Below, one piece after another: positions 6,175 to 43,959 of a stretch of 64,000 nt of DNA. The stretch spans positions 128,001-192,000 of IMG/VR virus record IMGVR_UViG_3300028591_005215; one strand, 5' to 3'. The stretch is from a virus (taxonomy: Duplodnaviria; Caudoviricetes). The position numbers were made by a program, and so were the translations under genes. How positions within the stretch are numbered: the first letter of the stretch is position 1; the number at the start of each line of letters is the position of its first letter. The notes below the pieces were generated by a model, which was not told where the DNA came from, searched no databases, and saw only the letters and a list, made by a program, of their open reading frames with translations.

Positions 6175-6432
6175 ATGAAAGTAATTAAATTAACTGAATC
6201 ACAGTTCCGTAGACTATTGGAATCTGACGATAGTGCACCTTCTTTTGATGGTGGCGATGTAACTGAATACAATTCTGGGGAAAAGGTTACAAATTCAGCT
6301 TCAGTGCATGATACTGATGGAAATATTAAATTTGGTAAAGAGCCTGACACTGACGATGTCGCAAATCAATTATCTGCGCAACAATGGTACGCTAATGGAA
6401 CAACAAATAATAATCACGCATTAAATTATTAA
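6175..6432 (+). CDS. small leader-tagged protein
   Basis: N-terminus MKVIKLTESQFRRLLESDD, a member of the shared leader family. Confidence 0.7.
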   Translation: MKVIKLTESQFRRLLESDDSAPSFDGGDVTEYNSGEKVTNSASVHDTDGNIKFGKEPDTDDVANQLSAQQWYANGTTNNNHALNY

Positions 6433-6433
6433 T

Positions 6434-7807
6434 ATGGCTCTTTTTATAGATGAAGCAGTAGATGACAAACTTAGTAAAAAAACTACTGTTATACCAAAAA
6501 ATATACATAATCTTGTTTTAAAGGTTAAAGGTGAATACGGTAATAATACAACACAAGACGGTTACAAAACAGTTAACCGCCTTTTAGACGCTTCTTACAA
6601 TAAAGGGAAGAAAAGAAAAGATGGCATTTCAGCAAAAGATGATAATGAACCTAAGTTAGATAAAAAAGATGGGCTTGTAAAATTTCCAACGTCAGCAGCA
6701 CGTAAAATGGTAATTGATTTGAAAAAAGAAAAGAATTTCATTGACCCACAAGCAAAACAACAGATTATAAATTATTTGGCAACTGATGTCAAATCTAAAG
6801 AAAGTGCTGTAAAAAATAATAATAATGTTCCACAAGTCCCAAAGCTTGCAAAGCCACCAAAGGCTAAACAAGAAAAAACAGCAAGTTCTATTAAAGTTGG
6901 CAACGCTAATGTAAACTTACATGAAACAAAAAGGAAAAAAATTATTATACCTGAATCAAAACTTATCATATTAAAAGAACATAAAGACCAATTAAATATT
7001 CCATTTAATCATGATACGGAAAATTATGATTATAAAGAAAATTGGGAACATTATATAGATTTTCTTGAAGAGTATGGGAAATATGGGCAATTACCACATT
7101 CGCAATGTGACGTAAGTGATGTTCGGGATAAGATTGCAGACATTTTACCAAATGTTTTAGATGAATTAGTTGGAGGTGAGGAAGGAATGTATAATGAATT
7201 AAGGCAAGAAGACTTTATATACGAAATGCTTAACGATGGGTATAGCGAAGAATACGTATCAATGGAAGACTTTGATGATTTTAATCCTGAAGAAATGAGT
7301 GCAGATGAATATCTTAGAGACTTTGATACGAATGACGTGTTTAGTAGCCTAAATAGAACAGGTGAAGAAGCATATGAAGATTATGTATATGAATTTTTTA
7401 AACACAGATTAGGTGAATATGGCTTCCCTTATTCTTTAACATACAACAATAGAGGGTTAATCTATGTTGAAAGAGCTATCAGTGTTAACGGGCTAATGAA
7501 AAGGCAGAAAACTAACCCATTTATTGGTAAATATGATTCAGTAGGCGAATATTGGACTTGGGATAATGGAAATAGTGAACCTTATTGTGGCGGTCAAGGA
7601 ACAACTGTAACACTTAAAGGTTGGGTTGACCCGTCAGAAGTTGATTGGTATCATACATTATACGTAAATATGTATGACTTAAATGAAGAAAAAGAACTTT
7701 ACATACCAAATGCTAACGTAGAAATTGTTTCAGTAACAATTTACGATGGGGCAACTGGTAAAGATAAATCATTTGGCTTGCAAAAACCTATAATTATTAA
7801 AGCATAA
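6434..7807 (+). CDS. multi-domain protein with internal leader and C-terminal ADP-ribosyltransferase-like domain
   Basis: Internal NLHETKRKKIIIPESKLIILKE. C-terminal IYVERAI...GEYWTWD...EPY...VDW..T...EEKELYI is an R-S/T-E ART-like pattern. Confidence 0.5.
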   Translation: MALFIDEAVDDKLSKKTTVIPKNIHNLVLKVKGEYGNNTTQDGYKTVNRLLDASYNKGKKRKDGISAKDDNEPKLDKKDGLVKFPTSAARKMVIDLKKEKNFIDPQAKQQIINYLATDVKSKESAVKNNNNVPQVPKLAKPPKAKQEKTASSIKVGNANVNLHETKRKKIIIPESKLIILKEHKDQLNIPFNHDTENYDYKENWEHYIDFLEEYGKYGQLPHSQCDVSDVRDKIADILPNVLDELVGGEEGMYNELRQEDFIYEMLNDGYSEEYVSMEDFDDFNPEEMSADEYLRDFDTNDVFSSLNRTGEEAYEDYVYEFFKHRLGEYGFPYSLTYNNRGLIYVERAISVNGLMKRQKTNPFIGKYDSVGEYWTWDNGNSEPYCGGQGTTVTLKGWVDPSEVDWYHTLYVNMYDLNEEKELYIPNANVEIVSVTIYDGATGKDKSFGLQKPIIIKA

Positions 7808-7850
7808 ACTATTTATTATTAAAATAAAATATTTAAAATTTATATAAATT

Positions 7851-8264
7851 ATGTCAACAATTAATGAAAACGGACAGACTTGTCTTGAAACAAGGGGTAT
7901 TACCGAAAGACAAAATGAAATTGTACGTTCAGATTACAATATTGAAGACCAATATAGTGCAACACATAAAGATGCTTTAAGTGATGGTGACGCACTTGGT
8001 AAAGGTACAGGACATGGTGGCCATACGGCTTGGTTACCTGACTGTTCTAAACCAACAAATATGATTGATTATTCTAATTTTGATACAAGTAATGGCGGTG
8101 GCCTTTATGATATTGAGGGCAGAAATGATATTGGTGGCCGTAAAAAAGCTATGGCTTCACAATTGTACAATGAAGAAAATCAATATAGCGCTGGTTTAAT
8201 AAGCACTGCTGAAAATGTGGCAGACGGACAATATTTCATTGGCCAAACAACAAAACATCTATAA
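7851..8264 (+). CDS. hypothetical Gly-rich (probable virion) protein
   Basis: 137 aa, GKGTGHGGH; preceded by ACTATTTAT motif at 7808. Confidence 0.65.
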   Translation: MSTINENGQTCLETRGITERQNEIVRSDYNIEDQYSATHKDALSDGDALGKGTGHGGHTAWLPDCSKPTNMIDYSNFDTSNGGGLYDIEGRNDIGGRKKAMASQLYNEENQYSAGLISTAENVADGQYFIGQTTKHL

Positions 8265-8279
8265 TTTAAAGTATAAAGC

Positions 8280-9056
8280 ATGAGTTTGAACCTATACGAC
8301 ATACTTAACAATGTATTAAACGAATCAGTCAATCAAAATAGTGTAATAAATGCGATTGATTCAAAAAATCGTGTCTTTATAGATTATAGTGATGAAGATA
8401 ATAATGCCCCAGGTAGAAGGTTAATAGAACCTTATGCCTTGGGTGTTACTAAAGCAGGAAATTTAGCATTAAGAGCTTTCCAATATCAAGGAGCTACTTT
8501 ACGTGGTGTGCCTAAATGGAAACTATTTAGACTTGATAGAATTAATAAATGGACTCCTCTTAAATCACATTTTAACTTGCCACCTAATGAACAAGGATTT
8601 GATTCGCCTGCTTATAATGAACGTGGGGATAATACGTTAGTAAGTGTGATTAAGCAAGTAAGCTTTGGTAAGAATGATTATTTATACCAACCTTCACTTG
8701 ACAAAGAAAGAAAAAGAACTGACATGGTTAAAAACCATGCAAATGCAATGGACTTAAGTAATTTGGAAGCAATGCCTAAAGGTCCAATTGTGCAAAAGAA
8801 AAACAATATTTTTACTTCAAGGCCTAATAGTAAAAAATATGCCGAATATAGAAAAAATGTTATGAACACACAAAGGGATGCAACAGAAACTGAAAAGTAT
8901 TGGGGTGACTATGATAAGGCAGAACAAGAAAGAATAAATCAGCAGATTCAAAATAAAGAGGATGATGAAATGAATAATTATCGTGGTCCTGTGAAAGATT
9001 TTGATGATGATGAAAATGATTACGAAAATTTTATAAAAAATGGCAGCGGCAGATAA
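8280..9056 (+). CDS. stand-alone WYL domain protein
   Basis: IDY...RRLIEPYALG...LRAFQ...WKLFRLDRI is the WYL signature; no HTH seen. Confidence 0.8.
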   Translation: MSLNLYDILNNVLNESVNQNSVINAIDSKNRVFIDYSDEDNNAPGRRLIEPYALGVTKAGNLALRAFQYQGATLRGVPKWKLFRLDRINKWTPLKSHFNLPPNEQGFDSPAYNERGDNTLVSVIKQVSFGKNDYLYQPSLDKERKRTDMVKNHANAMDLSNLEAMPKGPIVQKKNNIFTSRPNSKKYAEYRKNVMNTQRDATETEKYWGDYDKAEQERINQQIQNKEDDEMNNYRGPVKDFDDDENDYENFIKNGSGR

Positions 9057-9822
9057 TATTACAACATTAGATAATTCGGCATTTGCAAGAATAAAACAAA
9101 ATGCAAGAAATAGTAAAGCAAGAAAACTAATACACGAAGATGCTAAAAATGATGCTCATATAATTGCTGAAAGACAAAAAGAAAGAAGCAATTTTCTTAA
9201 ATCTTCAAATTCGCTTGCTAACGATGCTTTTGATTCTATGGAAGACAGTTATGCCACTTCAACTAATAAAATGCAGCAGGGGCAAATTAACGAAGAAATA
9301 GGGGCAGCTGGATTACAGTATGACCAAATGCTTCAACAAAGAATGGCCAAATTACAGCAAAGTATGAATAATCAAGTTCAGAATACAATGAACAGTGGCC
9401 TTGGGCTTATACAGCAAAATAGAATTGTTGAAGATGCACCTAAAGCAAGTAATTTTCTTCCGAAAGAAATTCTTGAACAGTTTAAAAGTAATCCTATTGA
9501 CACTGAAGTATTAAGTCCAAATAAACCTGTTCTTGATACAATTGGTGCTACAAATGGCTATGTGAATGAACGCCAAATGACTCAAGAGACAACTACCAAT
9601 AATGGAATTGACTATAATATGATACAAAATATAGTTGAAACGGCAGTAAAAAAATATGCAAAGGCTTTGAATAAATCTTTACTAAATGAAAATAAAACTT
9701 CAAATGGTAGCAATAATTTAAAAGCAATGAAAATTGGCAATAAATTTAGTTTTATTTCGGAAAATGGTGACGTTTATGAAGCTGTTTTAAAATTTAAGGG
9801 TAATATTAATAGTAAAAAATAG
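9040..9822 (+). CDS. hypothetical protein (possible head core/scaffold-like)
   Basis: 260 aa, Q/N-rich helical, many [ILV]xE sites (IHE, INE, IVE, VNE, LNE). Confidence 0.6.
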   Translation: MAAADNITTLDNSAFARIKQNARNSKARKLIHEDAKNDAHIIAERQKERSNFLKSSNSLANDAFDSMEDSYATSTNKMQQGQINEEIGAAGLQYDQMLQQRMAKLQQSMNNQVQNTMNSGLGLIQQNRIVEDAPKASNFLPKEILEQFKSNPIDTEVLSPNKPVLDTIGATNGYVNERQMTQETTTNNGIDYNMIQNIVETAVKKYAKALNKSLLNENKTSNGSNNLKAMKIGNKFSFISENGDVYEAVLKFKGNINSKK

Positions 9823-9887
9823 AAATTGCGTTGCATGTTATAAATTAAGATAAATTTAATTATAAATAAGGAAATTAAATGACTAAT

Positions 9888-9923
9888 AAAGGGTGAATTT
9901 CTGTGATGAAGTTCGCCCTTTTA
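9888..9923 (+). terminator. intrinsic terminator
   Basis: aaagggtgaattt...gaagttcgccctttt hairpin followed by a T tract. Confidence 0.65.
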
Positions 9924-9972
9924 TCGTTTTATTTACTATTTATTAACAAATAAGCTAAATAAAATAATTAAA

Positions 9973-12015
9973 ATGAAAGGACTTTACTTTTACAAGTTAA
10001 TGTCTCCATATCCAGAAGATGTAACGAAGAATTGTAGATTGACAGTTAATGAAATCGACAGTAACTTCTTAAATCTAAAAGATGAGGATATCCAAAGCGC
10101 TGAATTCGATTGTGAAGCAAATGTCATTACCCTCACAAGAAACAACGGCGAGAAGCTGCAAGCCGATTTGTCTTGTGCTATGTCAGGGGTGACAAAGAAT
10201 TTTGATGTAACTTTCGAAGAAGAAGGCGATTGCACTGGAACAGGTGTACTGAAATTCAGCTGGGATGAAGACGGAAATACCTATGAATCTAAAATTGAAG
10301 GTATTGTAACAAAAGATAACGTTGGCAACTATGTTATGACCGAAGCTATAACTGATGGAACTATCATAGGTAACGGCAGAGATGGTAGTCCATTAGGTTT
10401 AAATCCTGTTGAACAAACTGGACATTATAAACCAGTGATAGATTTATTCGATGTAACTGAAGGTGGTGAATTACCTGAAAAAGATAAAGTTAATATTGGT
10501 GATAGATATTTAACATTAGAAAAAGTTGATGATTACGGCTATCTTTATAATAGAAAAGGTGTTGATGAAATAATTGAAAAATTAAATAATGGATGGCGAG
10601 TTCCTACTAAAGAAGATTGGGATAATCTTTTAAATGCTATTGAACCTTGCGCTTATAGAAATCACAATTCAAGTGATTGCCATATAGAATTGGGTAAATT
10701 GGCTGGTAAAGAATTAAAAACAAAGGAAGAATGGCCTTTTGATAATGCTACAAGTGCTATTACTGATGACACAGCATATTTGTTTGATGAAATAGTTCCT
10801 GCTAATAAGCCTATTAATTCTAAAGGCACTAATAAATATAATTTCTCAGTTTTACCAAGCGGTTATGCTTACGAAAAAAATGATGAAATTAAAAAGTTTG
10901 GTGAAGTAGCAAAATATTGGACTAATTCACAGACAATGCCAACTGCACAAAGTGATTATTATACAAAGGCATTTATGTATAATTTATCTGGTGTATGGCA
11001 AGAAGCTGATTGCCCTTATAATTTTTATTCGGTAAGACTTATTAAGGATTATACAGGTAGTAATGCAAGAGAAACTGCTTACATAGGAGGTAGGCATTAT
11101 GAAGAAATATTAATGCCTGCATTGAATTCTGAACACGGTTTTGCATTGTGGACAAAAACAAATGTTGACATAGAAGTATCAGAAGACAATATGATTAAGT
11201 ATTCTGATGCATATCAAACAAAGTCGCATAAAGTTTATGTTATAAATGAATGGACTGGTAAAGAATGGGAAAGAAAAATTTTACCAGAAGGCGGAGTTGT
11301 AGTAATTAATAAACAGCAAGATTGTGACCATGAAATTGATACTGAATATCGCTTAGTTGATGGAAAATTAGTTGCCACTGATGATATTGTATATATGCGA
11401 GCTCTTTTAAAGCTTACCCCATTGATTAACGAGTTAATTGGCAATGTTGATGGTGAAAAAGAAGAACGTGAAGAATCTGATAGGGTATTAAGTGGCGCTA
11501 TTACAACCGAAATCGAACGTGCTAAAGCGGAAGAAGCAAGGATTGAAGAAGAGTTACAGGACGCTATTTTAGATGAATCAATTAAACGTGAAGAAGAGGA
11601 TGAAAAGATTGAAAGCAAAATAACTGCTGAAAGCAATACAAGGAAAGAAGCAGATGACGCTTTGGGTGAATCTTTAAATGTTGAAATTGAACGTGCTAAA
11701 GCAGAAGAAGTAAGGCTTAACGAACTTATTGAAGTGCTAAGTGGTTCAATTGAAACTGAGTCAGAAAGTGCTTCTACTATTGAAGCAGCGTTAAGTGGAG
11801 CTATTACAACCGAAATCGAACGTGCTAAAGCGGAAGAAGCAAGGATTGAGGGGTTAGTACCTGTAGGCGCTGAATATGAAATTAAGGCTAATTTGGATGG
11901 ATTTGAAGACATCAAAGAAAACAGAACAGCCAGTAAAATAGAAATACCTTCATTTAGTGGTACTAACAATACTGTTATTGTTATTGACTATGATTTTGGT
12001 GAAATTACAAAATAA
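9973..12015 (+). CDS. fibre-like protein with Fib_succ_major (C-type lectin-like) domain and coiled-coil repeats
   Basis: GWRVPTKEDWDNL, GTNKYNFSVLPSGY, YWTNS, YSVRLIKD; repeated EIERAKAEEARI; N-terminal LTVNEIDSNF. Confidence 0.75.
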   Translation: MKGLYFYKLMSPYPEDVTKNCRLTVNEIDSNFLNLKDEDIQSAEFDCEANVITLTRNNGEKLQADLSCAMSGVTKNFDVTFEEEGDCTGTGVLKFSWDEDGNTYESKIEGIVTKDNVGNYVMTEAITDGTIIGNGRDGSPLGLNPVEQTGHYKPVIDLFDVTEGGELPEKDKVNIGDRYLTLEKVDDYGYLYNRKGVDEIIEKLNNGWRVPTKEDWDNLLNAIEPCAYRNHNSSDCHIELGKLAGKELKTKEEWPFDNATSAITDDTAYLFDEIVPANKPINSKGTNKYNFSVLPSGYAYEKNDEIKKFGEVAKYWTNSQTMPTAQSDYYTKAFMYNLSGVWQEADCPYNFYSVRLIKDYTGSNARETAYIGGRHYEEILMPALNSEHGFALWTKTNVDIEVSEDNMIKYSDAYQTKSHKVYVINEWTGKEWERKILPEGGVVVINKQQDCDHEIDTEYRLVDGKLVATDDIVYMRALLKLTPLINELIGNVDGEKEEREESDRVLSGAITTEIERAKAEEARIEEELQDAILDESIKREEEDEKIESKITAESNTRKEADDALGESLNVEIERAKAEEVRLNELIEVLSGSIETESESASTIEAALSGAITTEIERAKAEEARIEGLVPVGAEYEIKANLDGFEDIKENRTASKIEIPSFSGTNNTVIVIDYDFGEITK

Positions 12016-12036
12016 TAAAAATATCATATTATAAAG

Positions 12037-19302: not shown

Positions 19303-20232
19303 ATGTTTAAGAAAATGATTGATTTTAACCAAGCAATAAGCATCATAAGAAGAAATGGTGGCTTCAAGTCAAATAGAAAAGATACATCATATTACAGAAC
19401 GTATACTATAGAAGGTAATAGACCATTACAAGCACGTGTTTCAAATCACGGAACATGGTTATGGACTTGGTATGACAAAGATTATGACCCATCATATGCT
19501 ATTAATTTCTGTGTTGTGTTTTCTGAAAATGGTGAATATGATTCTGACGTATCTGTTGATATGGACATAAAGGATGAAGAAGGAAATGTAATTGGACGGA
19601 AGAAATCATTTGAAGTTATTCAGTATGTCTATAACTGCCAAATACTTGATGATAATGATGCAGCGCTAATAAATCAAGCAGTTCAGAATATATGGCAAAA
19701 CAAAGGGTTTAAAGACCCATTGGCAAACACCCCAAAGCACGCAAAAGTAATAATATTAAGACCAAACGAAACACCAGAGATAATAACAGAAGCAAAACAT
19801 ACAAATATGAATAAGAAATTAATTAGATTAACAGGCCTTGATTGGAGAACATATGCAAATGCAGCAAAGAAGAGGGACGCACAGATACAGCAATTAGGCC
19901 GTGATGCAACTGATAAAGGTGGTAATCGTTTAACACATTTAAGAAATAACTTGGATTATGCTGCATCTGATGCTTTAACGTCTAAATATGCACAAAGGCA
20001 TAACAATGGCTATCCAACCAATAATGCTGATGTCTACACTAAAAACGGTTATCAGACTGTTACAACCAACAATTTTGATGGTAATGGAAGGTGGTCAAGA
20101 GGCGAATTCAATTATGATAACAAAGGTAATATAGATAAACAAGGTTACAATATGAATTCGCAAATGGACAACGAGGTAGAAGACTATATGAAAGGTAAAT
20201 CAAAATACATTAAAGGTAAAGGTTGGCAATAA
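19303..20232 (+). CDS. fusion of RNase-like (RxSNH) domain and leader-tagged domain
   Basis: SYY...ARVSNHG resembles BECR/polyvalent-protein RNase domains; internal MNKKLIRLT at 19807. Start uncertain (19264, 19303 or 19315). Confidence 0.5.
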   Translation: MFKKMIDFNQAISIIRRNGGFKSNRKDTSYYRTYTIEGNRPLQARVSNHGTWLWTWYDKDYDPSYAINFCVVFSENGEYDSDVSVDMDIKDEEGNVIGRKKSFEVIQYVYNCQILDDNDAALINQAVQNIWQNKGFKDPLANTPKHAKVIILRPNETPEIITEAKHTNMNKKLIRLTGLDWRTYANAAKKRDAQIQQLGRDATDKGGNRLTHLRNNLDYAASDALTSKYAQRHNNGYPTNNADVYTKNGYQTVTTNNFDGNGRWSRGEFNYDNKGNIDKQGYNMNSQMDNEVEDYMKGKSKYIKGKGWQ

Positions 20233-29660: not shown

Positions 29661-30380
29661 ATGAAAGTAATAATCACTGAATCACAATATAAAAAGTTGT
29701 TTGAAGCGCAAATGGAAGGATTTCGTTTGGATGCCTTAAATACAATGCCTTATGCTAAGAAAGTCAGATATTGCAAAGAAATGCTTGGGAATCCAATAGG
29801 GAATGGCTCAAGCAGAATTGTGTTCCAAATTGATGATGAAAAATGCCTTAAATTGGCTAAGAATCAAAAAGGGGTTGCACAAAATGAAGAAGAATGCTCA
29901 ATAACACGTGACAGTTATAAGGAACAGACAGGATTATTTCCTAAAGTATACCAATTTGATGGCGACCATACCCAACTGTTCGGATATGATGGTAATGAAG
30001 AACCAAGATATCAATGGATAGTATGTGAATATGTTCTACCAGCAAAGGCTCAAGACTTTAAAAAAGTCACAGGTTTTGATTGGAAACTTGTTTGTAATTT
30101 TATAATGTACCAAGGTAGTAGATATGAACGAGGGATTGCACGATATGATAGGTCTGTTATTAATGATAATAATATTGATGAAATATTGGAAGCTGACGAA
30201 AATGGTTCATATTTCTTAAATGAATTAGAAAATTATCTCGGAAGTTATCAACCACCAACAGGTGATTATACAAGATTAGCAAATTGGGGGATGGTTCAAC
30301 GTGATGGGGAAACACATATGGTTATCCTTGATTCAGGATTAAGTGAAGAAATATATAATAATTTTTACAGAAGAAGATAA
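29661..30380 (+). CDS. leader-tagged protein-kinase-like protein
   Basis: Leader MKVIITESQYKKLFE; kinase fold IGNGSSRIVF, CLKLA, QNEEE, PKVY, WIVCEYV, GD...ANWG, VILDSG. Confidence 0.7.
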   Translation: MKVIITESQYKKLFEAQMEGFRLDALNTMPYAKKVRYCKEMLGNPIGNGSSRIVFQIDDEKCLKLAKNQKGVAQNEEECSITRDSYKEQTGLFPKVYQFDGDHTQLFGYDGNEEPRYQWIVCEYVLPAKAQDFKKVTGFDWKLVCNFIMYQGSRYERGIARYDRSVINDNNIDEILEADENGSYFLNELENYLGSYQPPTGDYTRLANWGMVQRDGETHMVILDSGLSEEIYNNFYRRR

Positions 30381-30381: not shown

Positions 30382-30654
30382 ATGAAAAAACTAATTAGAC
30401 TTACAGAAGGCGATTTGCACCGTATTATTGAAAATAGCGTTAAACGTGTTTTGAAAGAATATAACCATAATAGTTGACTTGGTAAGAAATTGGATATGGC
30501 AGACATGGAAGCTAAACATGGTAATGGTAATATAGATGACAAGCATGGTAGGGCTGCAATGGCTGCTATGAGCGATGATGATGAAACATCAGATATAGCA
30601 AAAAGAGATAAAGGCTTAGGTAGAAGACCTAAATATAAAGGTGATAAAGAATAA
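30382..30654 (+). pseudogene. leader-tagged ORF interrupted by an in-frame TGA
   Basis: Not in ORF track. MKKLIRLTEGDLHRIIENSVKRVLKEYNHNS, TGA at 30475-30477, then LGKKLDMAD...KGDKE and a TAA overlapping the next ATG. Confidence 0.7.
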
Positions 30655-31187: not shown

Positions 31188-31191
31188 CTAC

Positions 31192-31269
31192 ATGGCATTT
31201 TTTATGGTGCTAAATTTAACCGAATCACAGTTTGCAAAGATATTTGAAAATCTTTCCAATGAAGAATAG
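31192..31269 (+). pseudogene. leader-only mini-ORF
   Basis: MAFFMVLNLTESQFAKIFENLSNEE*, matching the LTESQF leader but with no cargo. Confidence 0.5.
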
Positions 31270-33005: not shown

Positions 33006-36000
33006 ATGGCAGATAATGCAAGGGGTGTACATGTATCGCCTGGCGTTTACTCACGTGAAATTGATATGACTTATGCAGTTAAGAGTCTTGGTATTACGAC
33101 TTTAGGCCTTGCAGGTGAAACCTTAAAAGGTCCTGCTTTTCAGCCAATGTCAATCTCTAACTGGCGTGAATTTGTAAACACATTTGGTGGTACTAGCACT
33201 GAAAAATTTAAAGGTAGCCAATATCCTAAATACGAATTACCATATGTAGCAAAATCTTACCTCACACAGTCTAATCAGCTTGAAGTTGTACGTGTGTTAG
33301 GGCTTAGCGGATATAATGCAGGTCCTGCATGGGTTATTACAGCTAAAATGGAAGGAACACAAGATAGTATGGTAGTTGCTGTGTTACGTTCAAGAGCAGA
33401 TTATCAAAAGTACTATAAATTCAACAGTGCAAATGGTACCTGTACTTGCCCAACTGATTCATATGATAAATTAGTATATCGTGTAGGTGAACTTACTAAA
33501 GATACAGACGCTTGTAAAAAACCTACATTGTACAATAAGAATGCACTTAACTTAGCGCCTTATGTTTCTTTATATTCAACAGGTAACGATTGCTCAGAAT
33601 ATAATTTCTCTGGAAGTGAAGAAACATATAGTATATCTTCTACAAATTTAGGCAGATTTAAAATCCAAGGTGTGACAGGTGAAACAAGTGGGACATCATA
33701 TACAAGCGATGCACCTAATGGTTTTGAATACGCAGTTTCTCTGAATCCTAATGATAAAGAATATATTATTAATGTTTTGGGTACTGACCCAGTAAATGGT
33801 GACGCTCCTATTTATGTGGAAGAATTATATGATGTCGCTTTAGAGCAAGCAATTGCAAATACAGGTAGTACTCACGCAACAGCAATTAATAGTGAATTGA
33901 CTTTCTATCAAGTGCTTTATCCAACAGAATTTTCAAGTATTGAACCTGTTAATGGCTTACTTAGAAAACCAGAAGCTTCTTTGACAAGGAAAGATTTAGG
34001 CTTAAGATATTTGGCTGATAAAGAGGTTGTTGGTAAAGCAGGGTTTACTGCGCACATATTTAATAGTGGTGAAACAATTACTAATGAAGCTGAAAATTTA
34101 GCTGTAGGTAAAATTTATACTGTAGCTCAATACACAGATAATAAAGGCAGTAGGCATTACGTTTATAAACGATATGATTACTATGATAATCCTGAAGATG
34201 GTGGTGACTATGTTGATGTTTTAAAATCACCAGGTATACTTATTAATGGTAATAAAGTTACGACACCAGCTAACGCAAAATACACTTTAGTTAAGAACTT
34301 AGCTGATGATTTGTATTATCGTTTAAATAAGGTAGGTGATGACCTTACATTTGTAAATTGTGACTTAAATAACTATAAATCAGCTTACCGATATTCATCA
34401 ACACCTTGGATTGTATCTAACTTGATGGGTGATTACAATCATATTGAATTGAAGAAATTGTTTAGATTCCATACAATTTCTGATGGTAATATGTCTGTTA
34501 ATGAAGTTAAGGTTTCAATTGAAAACATTAAACCTGATGAAGGTGTGTTTGATGTTGTAGTACGTGATATTAATGACACTGATGAAATTCAAGTTCCACT
34601 TGAAAAATTCTCTCATTGTTCATTAATTCCTGGGTCAAAGAATTATATTTCTTATAAGATTGGCTCATTTGACGGAATGTATGAAAGCAAGTCAAAATAT
34701 ATCACAGTTGAATGCAAGGAAAGTGACGCTGCTGAAAATGCAGTACCTGCAGGTTTCTTAGGCTACCCTTCAGTTCAGTATGGTGGAACACCAATTGTAG
34801 ATGATAGACAGTCAGGTATTACAGCACCTTTTATTAAATATAATACAACTTATGATGAAGATTTAAGAAATAGAAAACAATATTTTGGTTTGTCATCAAG
34901 AGTAGGTGTTGATTTAGATTTATTTAAATTTAAAGGTGTTGCAGCATACATTAACAAACCTTCAATGTTAACACACGGCTTCCACTTGGATTCAAGGCTT
35001 GATTTTGATGCTAACTATAATCCATTGGTTACGGTAGATGGTGAAAAAGGATATATATTCGATGCCGTTTCTAAGGGCACAAGAACATCTACATTAGACG
35101 GTGAACCAATCATTGGTGATGAATACTCAATGTATGGCTCAATTTATGAAAATGTATCATTACGTAAGTTCACTGTTTATTTCTATGGTGGATTTGATGG
35201 TTGGGATGTATTTAGGACATCAAGAAGTAACACTGATGACTTTAAACTCTCTAAGTATTTAGGCAAATATAACAAGACTACAGGTGAAGGTTATTCATTT
35301 GATAGAATTGCTGACCCTGAGTCATTAGGCTTAAATCAGAATGGTCTGACATCTGACTGGTATGCTTATCTTGCAGCTATTAGACAATTCTCTAACCCTG
35401 AATCAGTTGATATTAATGTTTTTGCCACACCAGGTATTGATTATGTAAACAATAAAACTCTTGTAGAAGAAACAATTGATATGCTTGAACAGGAAAGAGC
35501 TGACTCTATCTACGTTGTGACAACACCTGATAAACCATTTGGTGTTGGTGATTATGTAGATGAAATGTTTACACCTGAAGAAGCTGTGTACAATTTGGAA
35601 GAATCGGAAATTACGTCTAACTATACATGTACATATTATCCTTGGGTTAAATATCTTGACCAAGATAATAGCCAGTATATTTATTTGCCACCTACAAAGG
35701 ATGTTGTAAGAAACTTTGCACAAACTGATAATTCTGCTTATCCTTGGTTTGCACCTGCAGGCCTTGAACGTGGCGATGTTAATTGTGTAAAAGCACACTA
35801 TGTTACAAAGTTGGCTGATGAAGATGAGCTTTATGATAATAGAATTAATCCAGTTAAGACATTTGCTACTGACGGTGTTAAGATTTGGGGGCAGAAAAAC
35901 TTACAGGAAACTGATACACAATTGAATCGTATAGCTGTACGTAGATTGCTGCTTCGTATGAGAAAGCTTATTGCAATTGCTTGCAGAAGTTTAATTTTTG

Positions 36001-36244: not shown

Positions 36245-36280
36245 AAAAGAGAATCCTTTGATGGTGGGTTCTCTTTTTTT
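36245..36280 (+). terminator. intrinsic terminator
   Basis: aaaaagagaatcc...gggttctcttttttt after the sheath gene. Confidence 0.7.
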
Positions 36281-36321
36281 ATTTGTATTATATTTATATA
36301 TAAATTAAACGTTTAATAATT

Positions 36322-36696: not shown

Positions 36697-36764
36697 TACA
36701 ATTATATTGACTGATGCACAAATCACCAATAACACATAAAAAATAACATTAAAATTATAATATT

Positions 36765-37169
36765 ATGGTAATAAACGAAAACTATTTACATAAAGTAATT
36801 GAAGAAAATATTCAGCAAGTCATCAATGAAAATGATGAAAATGAAGGCTTTAAAGATATGGTTAAAAGTGGGGCTAATGCAGTAAGTGCATTTTTTGGAA
36901 ATGGTCCTGGTAATTCTGAAAGAAGAAGACCTGCGCCAAATGATACTGAATTTCCATATAACCTTAATAAGCGATTTAAAGCTGCTGCGACTAATTTTAA
37001 AGCATCTAATTCATATTATAAAGCCCAAGAACTTATTAACACTTTAATGCCGTTAGCCAAAAGATACGGTGGAAATGCAACACTTTCCCAAGTTATAAGG
37101 TCAGCTCAAAGTATGAAGGGTAATGCCAATAGTAGACGTAGTAGGTCAATTAATAACATTTACAATTAA
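36765..37169 (+). CDS. leader-tagged basic protein
   Basis: MVINENYLHKVIEENIQQVINENDENEG followed by a basic domain. Confidence 0.7.
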   Translation: MVINENYLHKVIEENIQQVINENDENEGFKDMVKSGANAVSAFFGNGPGNSERRRPAPNDTEFPYNLNKRFKAAATNFKASNSYYKAQELINTLMPLAKRYGGNATLSQVIRSAQSMKGNANSRRSRSINNIYN

Positions 37170-37615
37170 CAAATCTTATTAATTAGCCAATTTAACATTA
37201 TAAGGAAAACGTTATGTTTTCTATTTTTTTCCTTAAGGAGTAATTCTTTACATTTGTGAGTTTTTAAAATATGACTCCCATCTAAAGGAATTACTCTTTT
37301 TCTTTCTTGATAGATTCTTGCACATTCAGCCTTGAAATTATTACCATGATTACTAAAATCATTTTTACCAATCATTGACAATTTCAAATGAATCATTTCG
37401 TGTGTAATTATATCAGATAATTCTTCTTTATCCCATAAGAACATGTCACTAACAAATATTTTATATTTGTTTTTTGTTTGTCTTACAAAACCAGCTACAT
37501 TATGTATTGAATGGTCAATGGCAAATGTTATGTTTTTAGTTGGTAATTCATTGTTGAAATAATTGTTATTATTATCCAAATAATAACTTTTAATAATGCT
37601 TTTCGTTAATTTCAT
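37166..37615 (-). CDS. SprT-like zinc metalloprotease
   Basis: IITHEMIH...NHGNNFK (HExxH plus HG motif). Confidence 0.8.
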   Translation of the reverse strand: MKLTKSIIKSYYLDNNNNYFNNELPTKNITFAIDHSIHNVAGFVRQTKNKYKIFVSDMFLWDKEELSDIITHEMIHLKLSMIGKNDFSNHGNNFKAECARIYQERKRVIPLDGSHILKTHKCKELLLKEKNRKHNVFLIMLNWLINKIC

Positions 37616-37672
37616 ATTTTTTTATTTTGAATATAACGCTTTGTTTTTAATAAAACAATAGAATTAACATTT

Positions 37673-39532
37673 TTAACGTTCTAAAATCTTGTTAAATACC
37701 ATAACGCCATTTGTAGGGGAAATGTACATTTGGTTAGAATTAATTAATTTATTTATTTCATCATTTTTAAATGGTTTTCTCATTGTTGCAGTTCTTTTAA
37801 TAGAGTTGACATTCATAAACCCAGGAACCCATTTCGTAAATTCAAATCCACTATTCTGTAAGCTTTTTCCATTATTATGGTCAGCGTCCACATAGAATAT
37901 TAATTTTTTAACATTTATAATTTTATTAGCTATTTTAATTTGTTTATAATTTTTTTCAAAAAAATTAAGTAACTTCGATGAGCCACCAACTACATGCGAA
38001 TTTAGAATTGTAGATACCCTTATAACTTCCAACGTATCTAACTTATCAGACCTGCCATAGAAATTACTTCCAAAAGTGTATACCATGACTAAATCGCCTT
38101 TTTTAAAGTTACCGCAATCTTTTTTCAAATAAAGTCCAAGATTTACTTTAGCAGGTCTATATCCATAGAAGCAATTCTTATCCAAGAATGCTTTCAATTC
38201 ATTGTTTGGTACTTCGTGTATTTCACAATTTCTTGCAAATATTTTATTTTCGCATAGATTACAAGCATATCTGATATATGATTTAATGACTTCCCATTTA
38301 CGTTTATAGCCATTTTTTTCTTCAATCATTTCATAATCTTTAATCCAAATGACATTATACCCATCGCTATTATATTTTTTAGTTTCTGAAATAAAAAAAG
38401 ATGGTGATACACCAACCCCTTCTTCATTTTTCTTTCTATAATCATAACTGTTAACGTATATTATTTTTAAATTGCTATCGTTAATAGTAAAAATATCTTG
38501 TAAAGACATATAAGAGGAATCATGTACTATCTTATTAACTTCATAAGTGAATTTAACGTTTAATGATTTGAGGAAATTGTGTATTTCTGAAATATTTTTC
38601 TTGTCTATATTTATAGTTTCATCAATTGATTTAATCAATTCATTTGAATTGTTTATGATTTCTTTGTCATATTTTTCATTTGCAAAATAAAGTAATTTGA
38701 CGCCATTTTTGATGCATTTTTCCAACTTAATTTTATCTCTATTTTGAATTGTTTCCAATGATTCAGAAAATCTGTTTGGTTTGTAATGTTGTTCACCTTG
38801 GCATTCTATTGCTACGTTATAATCAGGTAAATAAAAATCCAATGATTGCTTTTCAAGCCACTTTTCCCTATATTGTGGAATGTATTTAATTGAGTTATCT
38901 GCAAGAATAGATTCCACTATTTTTTCAAGATTGTTTTCATTACATTTAGGGCATCCTTTACCTTGTAAATGATTATGTGGTGTTTGTGAAAAATCTCCGT
39001 GCTTACTGCAAGTTATTATAACATTTGTTGTGTTATTTATGTATTTTACTTTATCATAAGTATATTTTCCATTGTGAACTAATTTAGCTTTAGCTATGAA
39101 ATCTTCAGTGTTTGAAGCAAAATATTTTGAGAGCTTTTCACTTTTGCATTTAGGACATCCACATCCTGAAAGATGATTAGTTGCACTAACATTCCACCAT
39201 CCATGTTCTTTACCATCTGCCCCTAAGCATTTACAATAAACAGGAATGTTTTTAGTTTTAGCATCTATATACTTAAAATCACCATAAGAATATTTTGAAT
39301 TATGCACTTCATTGAACTTTTTAATCAGTTCATCGTTAGTATGCTTCTTTTTATCTGAAAGTTCTATTGGCATATGGTGTGCTAAGTGATGCTTTGGTGT
39401 TTGCTCAACCCTAATTCCATTATACCATAGAACTACAGGTATATTATTCTTAACATAAACAACATCTTTATAGTCAAACACATTTTCGCCCCAAACCTTT
39501 TTAGCTTTATCAATAAATTTTTTTGTCTTATC
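37673..39532 (-). CDS. homing-endonuclease-like protein (Zn repeats, one intact and one degenerate Vsr-like domain, Mom/GNAT-like C-terminus)
   Basis: CSKHGDFSQTPHNHLQGKGCPKC; SLDFYLPDYNVAIECQGEQHY; IFARNC...LEVIRV...GGSSKLL...FYVDADH. Start probably MDKTKKF (~39532-39535), translationally coupled to the upstream stop. Confidence 0.8.
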   Translation of the reverse strand, partial: DKTKKFIDKAKKVWGENVFDYKDVVYVKNNIPVVLWYNGIRVEQTPKHHLAHHMPIELSDKKKHTNDELIKKFNEVHNSKYSYGDFKYIDAKTKNIPVYCKCLGADGKEHGWWNVSATNHLSGCGCPKCKSEKLSKYFASNTEDFIAKAKLVHNGKYTYDKVKYINNTTNVIITCSKHGDFSQTPHNHLQGKGCPKCNENNLEKIVESILADNSIKYIPQYREKWLEKQSLDFYLPDYNVAIECQGEQHYKPNRFSESLETIQNRDKIKLEKCIKNGVKLLYFANEKYDKEIINNSNELIKSIDETINIDKKNISEIHNFLKSLNVKFTYEVNKIVHDSSYMSLQDIFTINDSNLKIIYVNSYDYRKKNEEGVGVSPSFFISETKKYNSDGYNVIWIKDYEMIEEKNGYKRKWEVIKSYIRYACNLCENKIFARNCEIHEVPNNELKAFLDKNCFYGYRPAKVNLGLYLKKDCGNFKKGDLVMVYTFGSNFYGRSDKLDTLEVIRVSTILNSHVVGGSSKLLNFFEKNYKQIKIANKIINVKKLIFYVDADHNNGKSLQNSGFEFTKWVPGFMNVNSIKRTATMRKPFKNDEINKLINSNQMYISPTNGVMVFNKILER

Positions 39533-41171
39533 CATTCCATTCCCAGACTTTACACCCACAGTCATATATTCTATATATTTTTCTTTCTAACATTATTTCA
39601 TGCTCCGATTTATTTTTATCAAAGCCTTCTTTAATTAATTTATCTTTTCTGTATTTAAATCTGTTTTCTCTTTGTCTATTTATAACGTAATAATAATTAG
39701 GACTTGAATTACGTAGAAATTTAAACCCTAAATTATGGTACATACCACCTTTAAACCATCTGTTATCAGAATAGCTTATTATCTTAGATGGGTGATTGTT
39801 TTCTATAAAATACTTAAATAATTTGCTTGCACCGCCTATGACGTTAGTACCTAATTTATTGCAAAATCTAATTAATTCATATTCCCCATCTTTCGGTTTT
39901 AGTCCCAAATTTATTCTTAAAGGACTAAAACACATTAATGAAACAATTTCACCTTTAAAATACAGACCTATGTCAATAGAACTACCAACATTACCCTGTA
40001 TGTGATTATTGTTAAGAAAAATTGCTTTTTCTTTTTTATCAACTTTTTTTAGCTCGCATTTTCTTGCATATATTTTATTGTTGCTTTGTAATAAAATATT
40101 TGAAATTATACTTTTAACTATTGTTTGCTTATTTATCCATTCATCTTCAAATATATGTATTAATCTTACCCCTTTGCTTTCACATTCAATTGTTTTGTTT
40201 AAATGATAAGATTTATCTTTAAATTCTTCAGAATGCCAATGCAAACCATCACACTCAATACCTAAATGTGCTTTAGGGATAAAAATATCAAGTTCATTTT
40301 TGTCATCTAATATGTTCCTATTCGATTGTTCTGCTGATGAATCAATTTTGTGGACAAAAGAAAATAATTCATCTTCAAATTTTGAAATTATTCTACCTTT
40401 GCCACATCTTGGGCATCCATGACCAGATAAATGGTCGTTTGGACATTGTAAAAAATCACCGTGCTTTTTACATGTTATTACGCATAAGTCTTTTGCTGAT
40501 ATATAATTTGTTTTTGAATAGTCATATTTATCACCATGAACAGATTTTGCGAGTTTAATAAATTCTTCTGTTGTATGTTTTTTGTGCCTATTTTTAATAG
40601 AACATTTGGGGCATCCTTGTCCTAATAAATGTTTTGAAGGAGTTTGCCAAAATTCGCCATGTTCAGGACATATTATACAAACTTTCTTATGCATTAACTC
40701 GTAATTTACTTTACTGTAATCATATCTATTATTTGAATGTTTTTTATTAAACAAATCTATCAATTCATTAGTTGTTAATTTTTTACCACTGCACTTAGGA
40801 CATCCTTGCCCATTAAGATGGTTTAATGGTTTTTGGTAAAAAGAGCCATGTGTATTACAAATTATTTCAACGTTAGTATTTGAATTAACATATTCAACTT
40901 TTGAATAATCATATTTATCGCCATGAACAGATTTTGCTTTCTTAATAAATTCTTCAGTGGAAGAACGCTTTTTACTTCCACGTCCTTTATTAGAACACAT
41001 AGGGCATCTATTACCACGAATATGATTAGCAGGTGTTTGCCAAAATTCACCATGTTCTGGACAAACTATACAAACCTTAGTTTGACTATTGACGTAGCAA
41101 ACTTTTGAATAGTCATATTTATTTCCGTGAACAGATTTTGCTTTTTTAATAAATTTATCTAATTTATCCAT
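39528..41171 (-). CDS. homing-endonuclease-like protein (4 Zn repeats + Vsr-like + Mom/GNAT-like)
   Basis: Four YDYSKxxY...C..HG.F.Q.P..H..G..CP.C repeats; ELDIFIP...IECDGLHWH; YELIRFC...GGASKLF...SYSDNRW. Confidence 0.85.
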   Translation of the reverse strand: MDKLDKFIKKAKSVHGNKYDYSKVCYVNSQTKVCIVCPEHGEFWQTPANHIRGNRCPMCSNKGRGSKKRSSTEEFIKKAKSVHGDKYDYSKVEYVNSNTNVEIICNTHGSFYQKPLNHLNGQGCPKCSGKKLTTNELIDLFNKKHSNNRYDYSKVNYELMHKKVCIICPEHGEFWQTPSKHLLGQGCPKCSIKNRHKKHTTEEFIKLAKSVHGDKYDYSKTNYISAKDLCVITCKKHGDFLQCPNDHLSGHGCPRCGKGRIISKFEDELFSFVHKIDSSAEQSNRNILDDKNELDIFIPKAHLGIECDGLHWHSEEFKDKSYHLNKTIECESKGVRLIHIFEDEWINKQTIVKSIISNILLQSNNKIYARKCELKKVDKKEKAIFLNNNHIQGNVGSSIDIGLYFKGEIVSLMCFSPLRINLGLKPKDGEYELIRFCNKLGTNVIGGASKLFKYFIENNHPSKIISYSDNRWFKGGMYHNLGFKFLRNSSPNYYYVINRQRENRFKYRKDKLIKEGFDKNKSEHEIMLERKIYRIYDCGCKVWEWNG

Positions 41172-41288
41172 AACTCTTTTTTCTTATGCTAATATATAAT
41201 ATTTTATTTAAATAACAAAATATATTATTAAAATTATAAAATATAATATTTATATTATATAAAAATAAATATATTAAATATATAAAAT

Positions 41289-41777
41289 ATGTCAGATTTA
41301 CTTTTGAAGATGCCGCTCAATTATGAGCCATTAAGGAAAAATAGATGGTTATTCAGGTTCCCTGCAGATTTGGGCATTCAAGAGTGGTGGCTTTCAAGTG
41401 CATCACGTCCATCTATCACACAGGATGAAACTCAAATTCCGTTCTTGAACACATCAACTTATGTTGTTGGTAGATATACATGGGAAACAATTCAAGTAAC
41501 ATTACGTGACCCAATTGGGCCAAGTGCTTCACAGGCTATTATGGAATGGGTTCGTTTGCATTCAGAATCAGTTACAGGTAGACAGGGCTACGCAGCTGGC
41601 TATAAACGTGACGTAGAATTGGAAATGCTTGACCCTACAGGTGTTGTTGTGTCTAAGTGGATTCTTAAAAACACAATGTTAACAAATGTGTCATTTGGTG
41701 ATTTGGATTACAGTGTAAGTGACCTTGTTACAATTCAAGCTACATTAAGGTTTGATTATGCTATATTGTGCTACTAA
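41289..41777 (+). CDS. tail tube protein (T4 gp19-like)
   Basis: YEPLRKNRW, SASRPS, W..I.VTLRDPI, GYKRD..LEMLDPTG, FGDLDY, TLRFDYA. Confidence 0.92.
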   Translation: MSDLLLKMPLNYEPLRKNRWLFRFPADLGIQEWWLSSASRPSITQDETQIPFLNTSTYVVGRYTWETIQVTLRDPIGPSASQAIMEWVRLHSESVTGRQGYAAGYKRDVELEMLDPTGVVVSKWILKNTMLTNVSFGDLDYSVSDLVTIQATLRFDYAILCY

Positions 41778-41861
41778 TTGTCTGAAAATCAAGCAGTTAC
41801 AGCGTTTTGTTAAAGTAGCTATGAAAGAAAATAATAAAAAATAAAGAAATAGTAGCAATTT

Positions 41862-41893
41862 CTTGTAAATTAAGATATTTACTTATATATTTG
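41862..41893 (+). promoter_or_regulatory. Bacteroidota sigmaA-type promoter
   Basis: CTTG, N20, TATATTTG(CA) upstream of the glycosyltransferase. Confidence 0.6.
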
Positions 41894-41924
41894 CAAAATA
41901 ATATATAGGCAAATATCTTTTTTT

Positions 41925-43508
41925 ATGGGTTTAAAAAAGCAAAAAATACATTCTGCTGAAACTAGAAGTGTGCAATATAAAAATGATATGAAAGTAGCGT
42001 TATGCTGTATAGGAAGATTAGAAAACAGATATATTAAAGAATATGTTGATTTCTATCTAGACATCGGAGTAGATAAAATATTTTTATATGATAATAACTA
42101 TGATGGAGAAGAATATTTTGAAGATGTAATTAATGAATACATTTCAAATGGTTCTGTAGAAGTAGTCAATTTTAGGAATCAATCTTATTGCCAGTTGAAG
42201 GCTTATCAAGATTGTTATGATAAACATAGTTCTGAATATGATTGGTTTTGTTTTTTTGATATTGACGAATTTATTGCATTTCAAAATGTCAAAACAATAA
42301 AAGAATGGCTATCGTTGCCAATATACAGTGATTATGATATGATTCATATTAATTTTTTAACTTTTAATGATAGTAATCTAATTAAATATGAAAACAAACC
42401 AGTATTAGAAAGATTCACTAATGTGGTTAAGCCGTTGAATTTTTCTAAAAGAAATGGCATCATAGAAAATAATCATATTAAATCTGTTATAAAGGGAAAC
42501 ATTCATGTTGAGTGGAAAGAAACACCACACACACCTTCTAACGAAATAAACTGCTGTGATGGTAATGGGAAGAAATGTGATTCTAGAAAACCATTTGTTC
42601 CTTTTATTTATTCAAATGTTTTGTTAAGGCATTTTCCAACTAAAACGATTGAAGAATACCGAGATATTAAGGTTAAAAGAGGGTATCCTGATGGCAATAA
42701 AAATTTTTTTAAAGAGAATGATTGGGTTAATGAATTTTTTTTATATAATGAAAGGACAAAAGAAAAGATGGATTTTTTAGGCACTAAAGAAAAAAATGAT
42801 ACTGACATATTTATATGCACTCATAAAGATTTTAACAATATACTTAAAAACAAAGCATATAAAGTGATTAACTCAAACGATATTAATGGCGACATTGCCG
42901 ATAACGGGTTAAAGGGAAGCTTTTATTCAGAGATAATGAGTTATTTTCATATAAAAGACAATATTGAGTTGAAAAAATATGTTGGGGTATGTTCGTATAG
43001 GAAATACTTTGAGTTTATGGATGATATACCTAACATGGACGAGGTATTTAAGCAATGTGATGCTATTGCATGTGACCCAATTACATTCAATGGAACTGTT
43101 AGATGGCAGTATGCTTTATGTCATAATGTAGAAGATTTGGATATTGTTGAAGAGATAATTAGAAAAAAATTTCCAATGTATTTTGATTCATTTGAAAATG
43201 TTATGAATGCATCAATGATGTTTCCTTGTAATATGGTGATAATGAAAAAAGAAGATTTTGAAGAATACGTTGATTTTATAAGAAATGTATTGGATGAATA
43301 TATCAAATATGTTGGCATTGACATAGAGAAAAGAATAGAAAATAATAAAGAAAAATATCTTAAAAATTTTAGCCCTAATAACGAAGTTTGGTATCAATAC
43401 AGAATTGGGGGCTATTTGGCTGAAAGATTGACTAACGTTTTTTTACTTAAACATTTTAAAAAAATAAAAACATATAAGATGGTAATAACAGAACAAAAAT
43501 ATGAATAG
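41925..43508 (+). CDS. two-domain glycosyltransferase (GT-A GT92/GT2-like + DUF4422-like)
   Basis: ENRYIKEYV...FLYDNN...Q..AY.DC...W..FFDIDEF; second domain IFICTHK...YSE...YVG..SYRKYF...FPCNM.IMKK...RIGGYLAERL. Start may be 41988. Confidence 0.8.
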   Translation: MGLKKQKIHSAETRSVQYKNDMKVALCCIGRLENRYIKEYVDFYLDIGVDKIFLYDNNYDGEEYFEDVINEYISNGSVEVVNFRNQSYCQLKAYQDCYDKHSSEYDWFCFFDIDEFIAFQNVKTIKEWLSLPIYSDYDMIHINFLTFNDSNLIKYENKPVLERFTNVVKPLNFSKRNGIIENNHIKSVIKGNIHVEWKETPHTPSNEINCCDGNGKKCDSRKPFVPFIYSNVLLRHFPTKTIEEYRDIKVKRGYPDGNKNFFKENDWVNEFFLYNERTKEKMDFLGTKEKNDTDIFICTHKDFNNILKNKAYKVINSNDINGDIADNGLKGSFYSEIMSYFHIKDNIELKKYVGVCSYRKYFEFMDDIPNMDEVFKQCDAIACDPITFNGTVRWQYALCHNVEDLDIVEEIIRKKFPMYFDSFENVMNASMMFPCNMVIMKKEDFEEYVDFIRNVLDEYIKYVGIDIEKRIENNKEKYLKNFSPNNEVWYQYRIGGYLAERLTNVFLLKHFKKIKTYKMVITEQKYE

Positions 43509-43959
43509 ATTAATTAGGCTTACTGAACAAGATATTCATGATATAATAATTGAATGCGCAAATAGAATATTAAACGAACAAAGCTCTGTAGAAATTTATT
43601 ATCATGGTGGAAATTTAAAGGAAAATGGTTTTATATGGTTAACACCGCAAGACTATTATGCTAAAGAATATGCTAAAGAAATGGCGAACCCTGCAATATA
43701 TGAATTTAAAATTGATGAAAGTAAAATAAAGCCAATATCAATATTTGATATTGAAAGTATTGTAGGTGCTAATTTTGACCCATATGACCCATCTGAAGAA
43801 GAAATACAATTAGTGGTTAGTGAAGGATATAATGCATATTATTTGGACTATGATTCTTTTAATGCAGAAGGTCTTTGCCTTCTATCAAAAGAGCCGATAG
43901 TTTCAGTAAGGCGATTGACAGAAAAAGAATATAATATGATTGAAGATTGGATTGAATAA
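43501..43959 (+). CDS. leader-tagged ADP-ribosyltransferase-like protein
   Basis: Leader MNRLIRLTEQDIHDIIIECANRILNE; then YYHGG...IWLTP...YA..YA...IYEF...GYNAY...E (H-type ART pattern). Confidence 0.6.
   Translation: MNRLIRLTEQDIHDIIIECANRILNEQSSVEIYYHGGNLKENGFIWLTPQDYYAKEYAKEMANPAIYEFKIDESKIKPISIFDIESIVGANFDPYDPSEEEIQLVVSEGYNAYYLDYDSFNAEGLCLLSKEPIVSVRRLTEKEYNMIEDWIE

Follow-up and report, generated by a model that had tools for sequence, protein, structure and literature searches.

A conserved leader peptide on unrelated genes of a rumen jumbo phage travels with one IS1595 clade and may act as a prohead-targeting signal

Introduction

The internal proteins of bacteriophage T4 are diverse, counter host defences and have only a capsid targeting sequence in common (PMC3012670). 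Together with the polymorphic internal-protein loci of the T-even phages and their processing by gp21, the T4 proteins IPI, IPII, IPIII and Alt constitute the closest known system to the one described here, in which a short leader peptide opens a series of otherwise unrelated genes in a giant rumen phage. The DNA under study is a stretch of 64,000 nt (hereafter the window), corresponding to bases 128,001-192,000 of IMG/VR record IMGVR_UViG_3300028591_005215, a single viral contig of 279,749 bp and 30.6 % G+C from a T4-type jumbo phage of approximately 280 kb. Positions in this stretch are given as window coordinates, whilst G000 coordinates follow the whole-genome numbering of the 279,749-bp phage and L numbers denote the other loci compared.

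An initial annotation, made from the letters of the window and its open reading frames (ORFs), had proposed that the leader opens unrelated ORFs and serves as a T4-like tag that loads them into the head. Here we show that the leader is real, sharply bounded and under selection at the protein level, and that leader-cargo genes move as passengers of one clade of IS1595-family insertion sequences (IS) between jumbo phages and host chromosomes, with the cargo swapped at the leader boundary. We then weigh what the leader might do.

Results

A six-frame regular-expression search of the whole 279,749-bp genome returned 23 matches, 12 of which proved to be genuine leader genes whose ORF opens with the motif. 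A leader profile (A1), built from 47 leaders and run on the six-frame translation, scored eight canonical copies between 52 and 64 bits and a ninth, divergent one at 30 bits; the maximum in three Markov-shuffled genomes was 10-11 bits, so that the canonical motif stands far above a shuffled background. Several short-form leaders are present in addition. The canonical form reads M-x-K-K-L-I-R-L-T-E-S-D-L-H-R-I-V-K-E-S-V-N-R-I-L-x-E, the short form comprises the 15-16 residues M-K-V-I-x-(L/I)-T-E-S-Q-(F/Y)-x-x-(L/I)-(L/F)-E, and a third form, typical of internal copies, consists of the helix part alone, (T)ESDLH...ILxE. Most proteins that carry the leader have it at residues 1-8. Its end is abrupt: column information falls from 4.2 to about 1 bit right after the terminal Glu, which is present in 105 of 106 leaders and is preceded, three residues upstream, by L, I or V as a sequence motif only. 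Among the eight canonical copies, 700 codon comparisons yielded 247 synonymous and 190 non-synonymous differences; synonymous sites thus vary freely, from which it follows that conservation acts on the peptide, and an RNA- or DNA-level element behind the conservation was ruled out on the same ground. The cargo parts displayed no significant pairwise BLASTP similarity. Descent of all these genes from one diverged protein family was also ruled out, the cargo being unrelated and its folds different.

The instances listed in the initial annotation proved to be of unequal quality. Canonical leaders were found at three of them. The gene at window 26146..26538 (-) encodes 130 aa, with the leader at residues 1-27 (end ...NRILKE; 61.7 bits) and a cargo family conserved in metagenomes and in the IS passengers of L032 and L048, whilst that at window 43501..43959 (+) encodes 152 aa with the leader at residues 1-26 (53.1 bits). 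The third, at window 30382..30477 (+), scores highest at 64.2 bits and had been taken for a gene, but is a stub of 31 aa in which a TGA follows five residues past the leader; it could be a truncated or nonsense-mutated copy, or one that is possibly read through. Past the TGA the frame stays open for about 58 further codons that resemble cargo (window 30382-30650).

Short-form leaders open the 239-aa protein at window 29661..30380 (+), with a 15-aa leader ending LFE|A ahead of kinase-like cargo, and the 85-aa protein at window 6175..6432 (+), with the leader end LLE|S; the copy at window 31204..31269 (+), again listed as a gene, is a remnant of 21 aa. These three score at noise level on the canonical profile and are supported by position and, for the 29661 protein, by about 120 homologues that start with the short form or a helix-type variant. 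The 134-aa protein at window 36765..37169 (+) has a divergent, helix-type leader of 22 aa (...LHKVIEENIQQVINE|N) at its exact N-terminus and probably belongs to the leader family, its score of 10.7 bits being borderline. The 77-aa ORF at window 25845..26078 (+), with the helix-type candidate MDKIKKIIKEETRKILME|Y, is doubtful as a leader copy at a noise-level 9.2 bits.

Two internal sites had also been listed. That near window position 6930 was rejected as noise by its profile score. The other is real but truncated: in the protein encoded at window 19303..20232 (+), the residues MNKKLIRLT (window 19807-19833) are joined directly to the cargo LDWRTYANAAKK...GKGWQ. This protein is 67-79 % identical to those of L031 and L022 and begins with an uncharacterised N-domain of about 170-200 aa ('RVSNHGTW...VIQYVY'), which precedes the leader in frame here and in L013, L022, L031, L034 and L055; the N-domain plus leader build is common to phage genes and IS-passenger genes. 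A Met always directly precedes the leader in N-domain proteins, and two products from one frame are therefore possible.

For two cargo domains the models pointed to a fold, in the first case weakly. The cargo of the 43501 protein has a conserved YY(H/R)GG motif (alignment A3), and its model (predicted local distance difference test, pLDDT, 67.8) matched almost exclusively ADP-ribosyltransferase (ART)/RES proteins, including ParT, a RES toxin, AcrIF11 and a domain of a cyanophage pre-ejectosome protein. The matches were weak (Foldseek E 0.01-0.5; template-modelling score 0.40-0.45; VIA Z 5.9-5.4), and this cargo is a candidate for the ADP-ribosyltransferase/RES type. The model of the 29661 protein (pLDDT 86.9) matched APH(2'') and ULK kinases in Foldseek at E 2e-4 to 1e-3. 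Its cargo is predicted to adopt a bilobal protein-kinase-like fold with a Gly-rich loop, a Lys, a catalytic Asp...Asn and a D-x-G motif; G47, G49, K64, D202, D224 and G226 are invariant in the family and N208 is at least 90 % conserved. ART/RES-like and kinase-like folds are typical of enzymes that phages are known to inject or to use in host takeover.

In the models of the same two proteins the leader is a detachable extension. In AlphaFold models it is predicted as a separate helix with a low-confidence linker in the 43501 protein and as an unstructured extension in the 29661 protein, where residues 1-22 lack structure. Homologues without the leader exist in both families (P0277 in the 43501 family; P0352, P0366 and P0391 in the 29661 family), some 29661-family members beginning directly at the cargo. 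These observations together indicate that the leader is dispensable for the fold. The 29661 family, compared over 61 homologues, has leaders of differing length and sequence, whilst E15 is invariant and A16 at least 90 % conserved.

Beyond this genome the leader is far more widespread than the initial annotation had seen. A word-based search with the 130-aa protein gave 125 matches, most of which cover the 27-residue leader only, at 80-93 % identity and with other cargo. A profile search of 1.84 billion representative proteins retrieved 7,842 clusters at E <= 1e-3 and 1,577 at E <= 1e-10, the best-scoring of which mostly have two to four motif copies per chain. Pfam analysis of 146 top representatives recognised almost no known domain in the cargo, and no family in Pfam or PHROGs spans the leader. 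No match was obtained by a near-identity DNA search of window 25-45 kb against GenBank phages, a protein-atlas look-up gave a best score of 0.84, under the useful range, and our literature search found the leader motif in no paper. At least 191 leader loci were confirmed in IMG/VR; the CheckV completeness of 41 of the 44 records examined points to genomes of about 200-400 kb, and near-complete viral genomes have 8-19 leader copies each. To judge from sequence, the viral carriers appear restricted to T4-type jumbo phages. The GTDB species genomes contributed a further 60 leader loci, including those of the isolates Segatella bryantii DSM 11371 and Prevotella sp. MA2016 and of many rumen and gut Prevotellaceae and Bacteroidaceae bins; about 10 of the 60 are phage contigs binned with bacteria.

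Leader genes are a recurrent part of the head module. The genome encodes a gp21-type Peptidase_S77 (PF03420; 75 bits; G000 95679-96392), which shares approximately 30 % identity with T-even gp21, together with a Gp23-type major capsid protein (PF07068; 214 bits). Between the portal and protease genes lies a leader gene (G000 94387-94707) encoding 106 aa with a very acidic tail. S77 is present in six of seven leader-bearing IMG/VR records that are at least 90 % complete. Of the seven genomes with S77, this phage included, six have between one and four leader genes no more than 3 kb from the protease gene; as these genomes are related, the arrangement is conserved synteny and does not count as seven separate events. 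Gene order runs from a 144-aa gene through the leader gene(s) and the protease to an acidic scaffold and the capsid protein, which mirrors the T4 order 20-67-68-21-22-23 with the leader genes in the gp67/gp68 position beside the protease. The capsid proteins keep an (I/L)-x-E|A site (LIYE|A, LLKE|A) near residue 60, comparable to FLTE|A of T4 gp23. A gene of 142-144 aa (MKRLNKEYKLD... or MERLSKEFKLN...) always lies just upstream of the head-module leader genes (L191-L195; G000 93929-94357).

The S77 proteases (G000 95679-96392; L150-L165) have a conserved ...LQQYVE, followed by a variable linker of about 10 residues and an amphipathic helix, NEKI(N/S)KIK(N/S)ILNS; in this phage's own protease the helix reads ...KIKEILKE. 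This C-terminal helix may be the protease's own prohead-targeting tail, its likeness to the leader helix being loose and qualitative only. Compared profile to profile, the leader matched neither the scaffold N-terminus nor the protease alignment. Complex prediction for protease and leader scored 0.00, a value that counts neither for nor against binding.

The bacterial loci revealed a second association. In 29 of the 60 GTDB loci, an IS1595-family transposase gene or fragment lies immediately 3' of the leader gene in convergent orientation (near-full homologues in 22, fragments in seven more), and many of the remaining loci are cut off by contig ends. The transposase of L013 (Prevotella sp. MA2016) contains PF12762 (DDE_Tnp_IS1595; 8.6e-43) and PF12760 (zinc ribbon; 5.5e-9). 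Terminal inverted repeats of 24-32 bp, 91-100 % matched and many of them perfect, were identified in 13 loci, one repeat 0.9-1.3 kb upstream of the leader and the other just past the transposase, giving elements of 1.9-3.0 kb (mostly 2.3-3.0 kb). Because the repeats bracket both genes, the leader gene is a passenger inside the element. All six loci whose flanks were read have 8-bp AT-rich target duplications around the whole unit: TAAATAAT (L012), AAAATAAT (L037), AAATTTAT (L011), ATTAATTA (L039), TAAAAAAA (L033) and TTTTTTAA (L021). Comparison between elements showed islands of conserved DNA, namely the repeats, the transposase and a stretch of about 100 bp that spans promoter and leader, whilst the cargo and upstream ORFs vary; L041 and L042, for example, have flanks 95-97 % identical and cargo that diverges from the leader end onward. 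The link is specific to one IS1595 clade. Where the transposase was at least 57 % identical to the reference, a leader was present within 1.5 kb in eight of 10 loci, as against one of 15 loci with more distant IS1595 transposases.

In jumbo-phage contigs, intact elements and transposase remnants adjoin leader genes, and cargo families are common to phage genes and IS passengers; most phage copies, including the conserved head-module ones, have no transposon traces. The gene at G000 197273-198142, built of N-domain, leader and cargo, matches the Prevotella sp. MA2016 passenger at 92 % identity across 230 residues and is followed on the opposite strand by a remnant of an IS1595 transposase C-terminus (G000 198157-198320), which together point to recent exchange between host and phage. 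Imperfect IS1595-type inverted repeats (G000 ~34197-34216 and ~34691-34710) flank the leader gene at G000 34220-34645 (-), and the resulting 515-bp cassette (G000 34197-34710) contains promoter and leader gene only; given such repeats and no transposase, it looks like a mobile insertion cassette. Its cargo has a YY(H/R)G motif, as in the ART-like 43501 protein. Short inverted-repeat matches elsewhere in the phage genome (e.g. 130809, 245050 and 278822) were too weak to call. Divergent ORFs of the passenger region (L021 5065-5733 (-), L042 4728-5153 (-) and L041 5300-5539 (-)) end in a leader-like helix, with the forms ...RI(H/N)xIIxEVLNQYL... and ...NRIVRRVLKE, so the helix module is also used at C-termini. 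Our literature search found no paper tying IS1595, passenger genes and phage together, and the Jug-phage paper does not mention it.

Phage and transposon copies also share an upstream motif. The sequence (A/C/G)TATTTAT(T/A), with the core ATATTTAT, occurs 20-55 nt upstream of 46 of 291 genes of the phage (18 for the reverse complement), including those for portal, protease, scaffold and sheath and six leader genes; it is, on sequence grounds, a candidate phage promoter. In the window a copy, ATATTTATT, lies at 6147-6155 upstream of the 6175 leader gene, two or three copies of (C/A)TATTTAT(T/A) lie at 29605..29645 (+) upstream of the 29661 gene, one of them at 29633-29641, and another copy is found upstream of position 33006. 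In related viral contigs (G/A)ATATTTAT(T/A) precedes 65 of 119 leader genes, and GATATTTAT(T/A) lies upstream of 22 of 44 IS-borne leader genes (reverse complement in two).

The remainder of the window encodes core functions, including the tail sheath, a split family-B DNA polymerase and an SNF2 helicase, and structural proteins comprising a baseplate hub, a tape-measure-like protein and a virion or tail protein of 1,632 aa. Three paralogous genes (window 21845-23137 (-), 37673-39565 (-) and 39528-41171 (-)) combine treble-clef zinc fingers with a REase_MTES_1575-like nuclease domain, one with an added GNAT domain. Comparable repeats are present in L026, in L034 and in other parts of the genome, and the three look like homing-endonuclease genes. 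A 680-aa protein (window 9973-12015) with a Fibrobacter succinogenes major-paralogous domain (PF09603) and a promoter-like motif upstream adjoins a protein of 1,775 aa and may be a host-recognition component.

Discussion

We give about even odds (a probability of roughly 0.5) to the reading that the leader, in its 27-residue, short 15-16-residue and helix-only forms, is a prohead targeting and processing signal of T4-type jumbo phages of Prevotellaceae. It would act as an address label that brings unrelated small proteins into the assembling prohead core, where the S77 head protease, of gp21 type, would cleave behind the Glu of (L/I/V)-x-E; the matured cargo would remain in the head and probably be passed to the next cell along with the DNA. 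Targeting, cleavage and injection are steps that we infer. A prohead signal is nevertheless the best single explanation, because it accounts for the synteny with the head module and for why the (L/I/V)-x-E end does not vary, why the leader is detachable and why, among viruses, only T4-type jumbo phages carry it. The T4-like capsid tag proposed in the initial annotation has gained indirect support, to which the S77 and gp23 homologues, the enzyme folds of the cargo, the published T4 precedent and a promoter-like motif common to leader, portal, protease, scaffold and sheath genes also contribute. One possible elaboration is a leader of two modules, in which the decapeptide at the N-terminus, closed by L-T-E, would serve as the T4-like tag and the helix would bind the core.

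In its pure form, the initial proposal does not account for chromosomal IS1595 passengers without head genes or for helix-only copies at internal and C-terminal positions, and several observations weigh against prohead targeting more generally. The IS1595-borne leader genes of Prevotellaceae chromosomes lie among glycoside hydrolase genes with no head genes nearby, the canonical copy at 26538 (-) shares its strand and cluster with replication genes, and helix-only copies occur inside proteins as well as at C-termini. Unlike the 10-residue T4 tag, the leader has 27 residues that are near-invariant over thousands of clusters. The leader profile gave at most 3.3 bits on gp67, gp68, gp21 and gp22 of a T4-like phage, which is no similarity, and a search of 50,697 GenBank phage records with a leader protein yielded no leader match and no cultured relative. 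A capsid tag alone leaves the chromosomal IS copies, the helix-only internal and C-terminal copies and the near-invariance of 27 residues unexplained.

One rival is a capsid-independent role. The leader could be a docking or self-association module, a short strand plus amphipathic helix, for one conserved partner such as a Prevotellaceae host factor or a phage replication/transcription hub, with the tagged proteins acting in the producing cell. Near-invariance of 27 residues over 7,842 clusters suggests just such a highly conserved partner, and N-terminal, internal and C-terminal positions, two to four copies per protein, host copies without head genes and one copy amid replication genes would all be natural for a docking module. 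Such a module leaves unexplained why leader genes lie beside the head protease in six of seven genomes, why the (L/I/V)-x-E end is invariant and an E|A junction follows, and why viral carriers are limited to T4-type jumbo phages, and we regard it as unlikely, though credible. Consistent linkage to the head protease also counts against the leader as a tag for timed unfolding or degradation by a phage ClpC/ClpB-like AAA+ chaperone. In related contigs an AAA+ Clp-type gene of 807 aa does lie some 7.5 kb away from a leader gene, but no consistent linkage to a chaperone gene was seen and nothing else suggests degradation, making this reading very improbable indeed.

The transposon association admits two further interpretations. 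The leader protein might serve the IS1595 clade itself as a small regulator or cofactor, perhaps one of ribbon-helix-like type that binds DNA or the transposase, in which case the variable tail would be of little import and the phage copies would be leftovers of transposition. Leader carriage at eight of 10 near-clade loci versus one of 15 distant ones fits this, as do the conserved island of promoter plus leader within the element and the transposase remnants or inverted repeats that flank phage leader genes. However, most phage copies, head-module ones included, lack transposon traces, the cargo families are conserved (50-90 % identity among homologues) and include whole enzyme folds, and phage genomes retain 8-19 leader copies each, so that service to the transposon appears decidedly improbable. 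Alternatively, the IS1595 clade may have specialised in capsid-addressed genes under a phage promoter, with chromosomal copies that would stay silent until a jumbo phage infects, would then be activated by the transcription machinery of that phage, and would have their products loaded into the heads of the invader. Leader carriage could then be the price by which the transposon earns its place in phage genomes, or host sabotage of progeny virions; either way the transposon would be exploiting a phage protein-packaging address. We consider this scenario rather improbable as well.

If prohead targeting is correct and the leader is a head-loading tag, jumbo phages of the gut and rumen would send a very large, fast-changing repertoire of proteins into cells along with their DNA, the more than 7,800 tagged clusters, almost none with a known domain, would form a major and so far unexplored source of factors for host takeover and against defence, and the sharply bounded 27-residue tag would offer a ready-made protein-packaging tool for Bacteroidales phages. 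The transposon link provides a concrete mechanism for the spread and exchange of cargo genes between phages and hosts, and raises the question of why a bacterial transposon keeps a phage-addressed gene.

Set beside the T4 internal proteins, the genes described here likewise have a short N-terminal peptide on unrelated, fast-changing proteins, an (L/I)-x-E end, a gp21-type protease and a gp23-type capsid protein, and one phage cargo is a candidate ADP-ribosyltransferase, which would recall T4 Alt. Unlike the T4 system, the helix is a separable module that is also used internally and C-terminally, the copies are scattered at 8-19 per genome, and the leader genes are moved by a transposon and occur in host chromosomes too. 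The small proteins between the portal and protease genes recall T4 gp67 and gp68, one type of which combines a helical N-terminus with a very acidic tail, as do the 106-aa protein at G000 94387-94707 and its relatives of 110-125 aa; there is no detectable homology with gp67/gp68, and the leader here is common to dozens of unrelated proteins. The transposons resemble IS1595-family elements with passengers and transposase-less cassettes in their DDE_Tnp_IS1595 and zinc-ribbon domains, 24-32 bp repeats and 8-bp AT-rich duplications, and the 515-bp repeat-flanked cassette of this phage resembles transposase-less mobile insertion cassettes. They differ from known IS1595 elements in that the passenger is always leader-tagged, with a phage-type promoter motif and exchangeable cargo, and in that the element is shared by jumbo phages and hosts; our literature search turned up no account of such a clade. 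A functional likeness only may be drawn to encapsulin cargo-loading peptides and HK97-type prohead protease tails, in which a short peptide directs varied cargo into an HK97-fold shell; those tags are C-terminal and are not removed at Glu. What is new here is the length and invariance of the tag, the size of the family, the separable helix module and, above all, an obligatory passenger of one IS1595 clade that is found in jumbo phages and their Prevotellaceae hosts and exchanges its cargo at the leader boundary.

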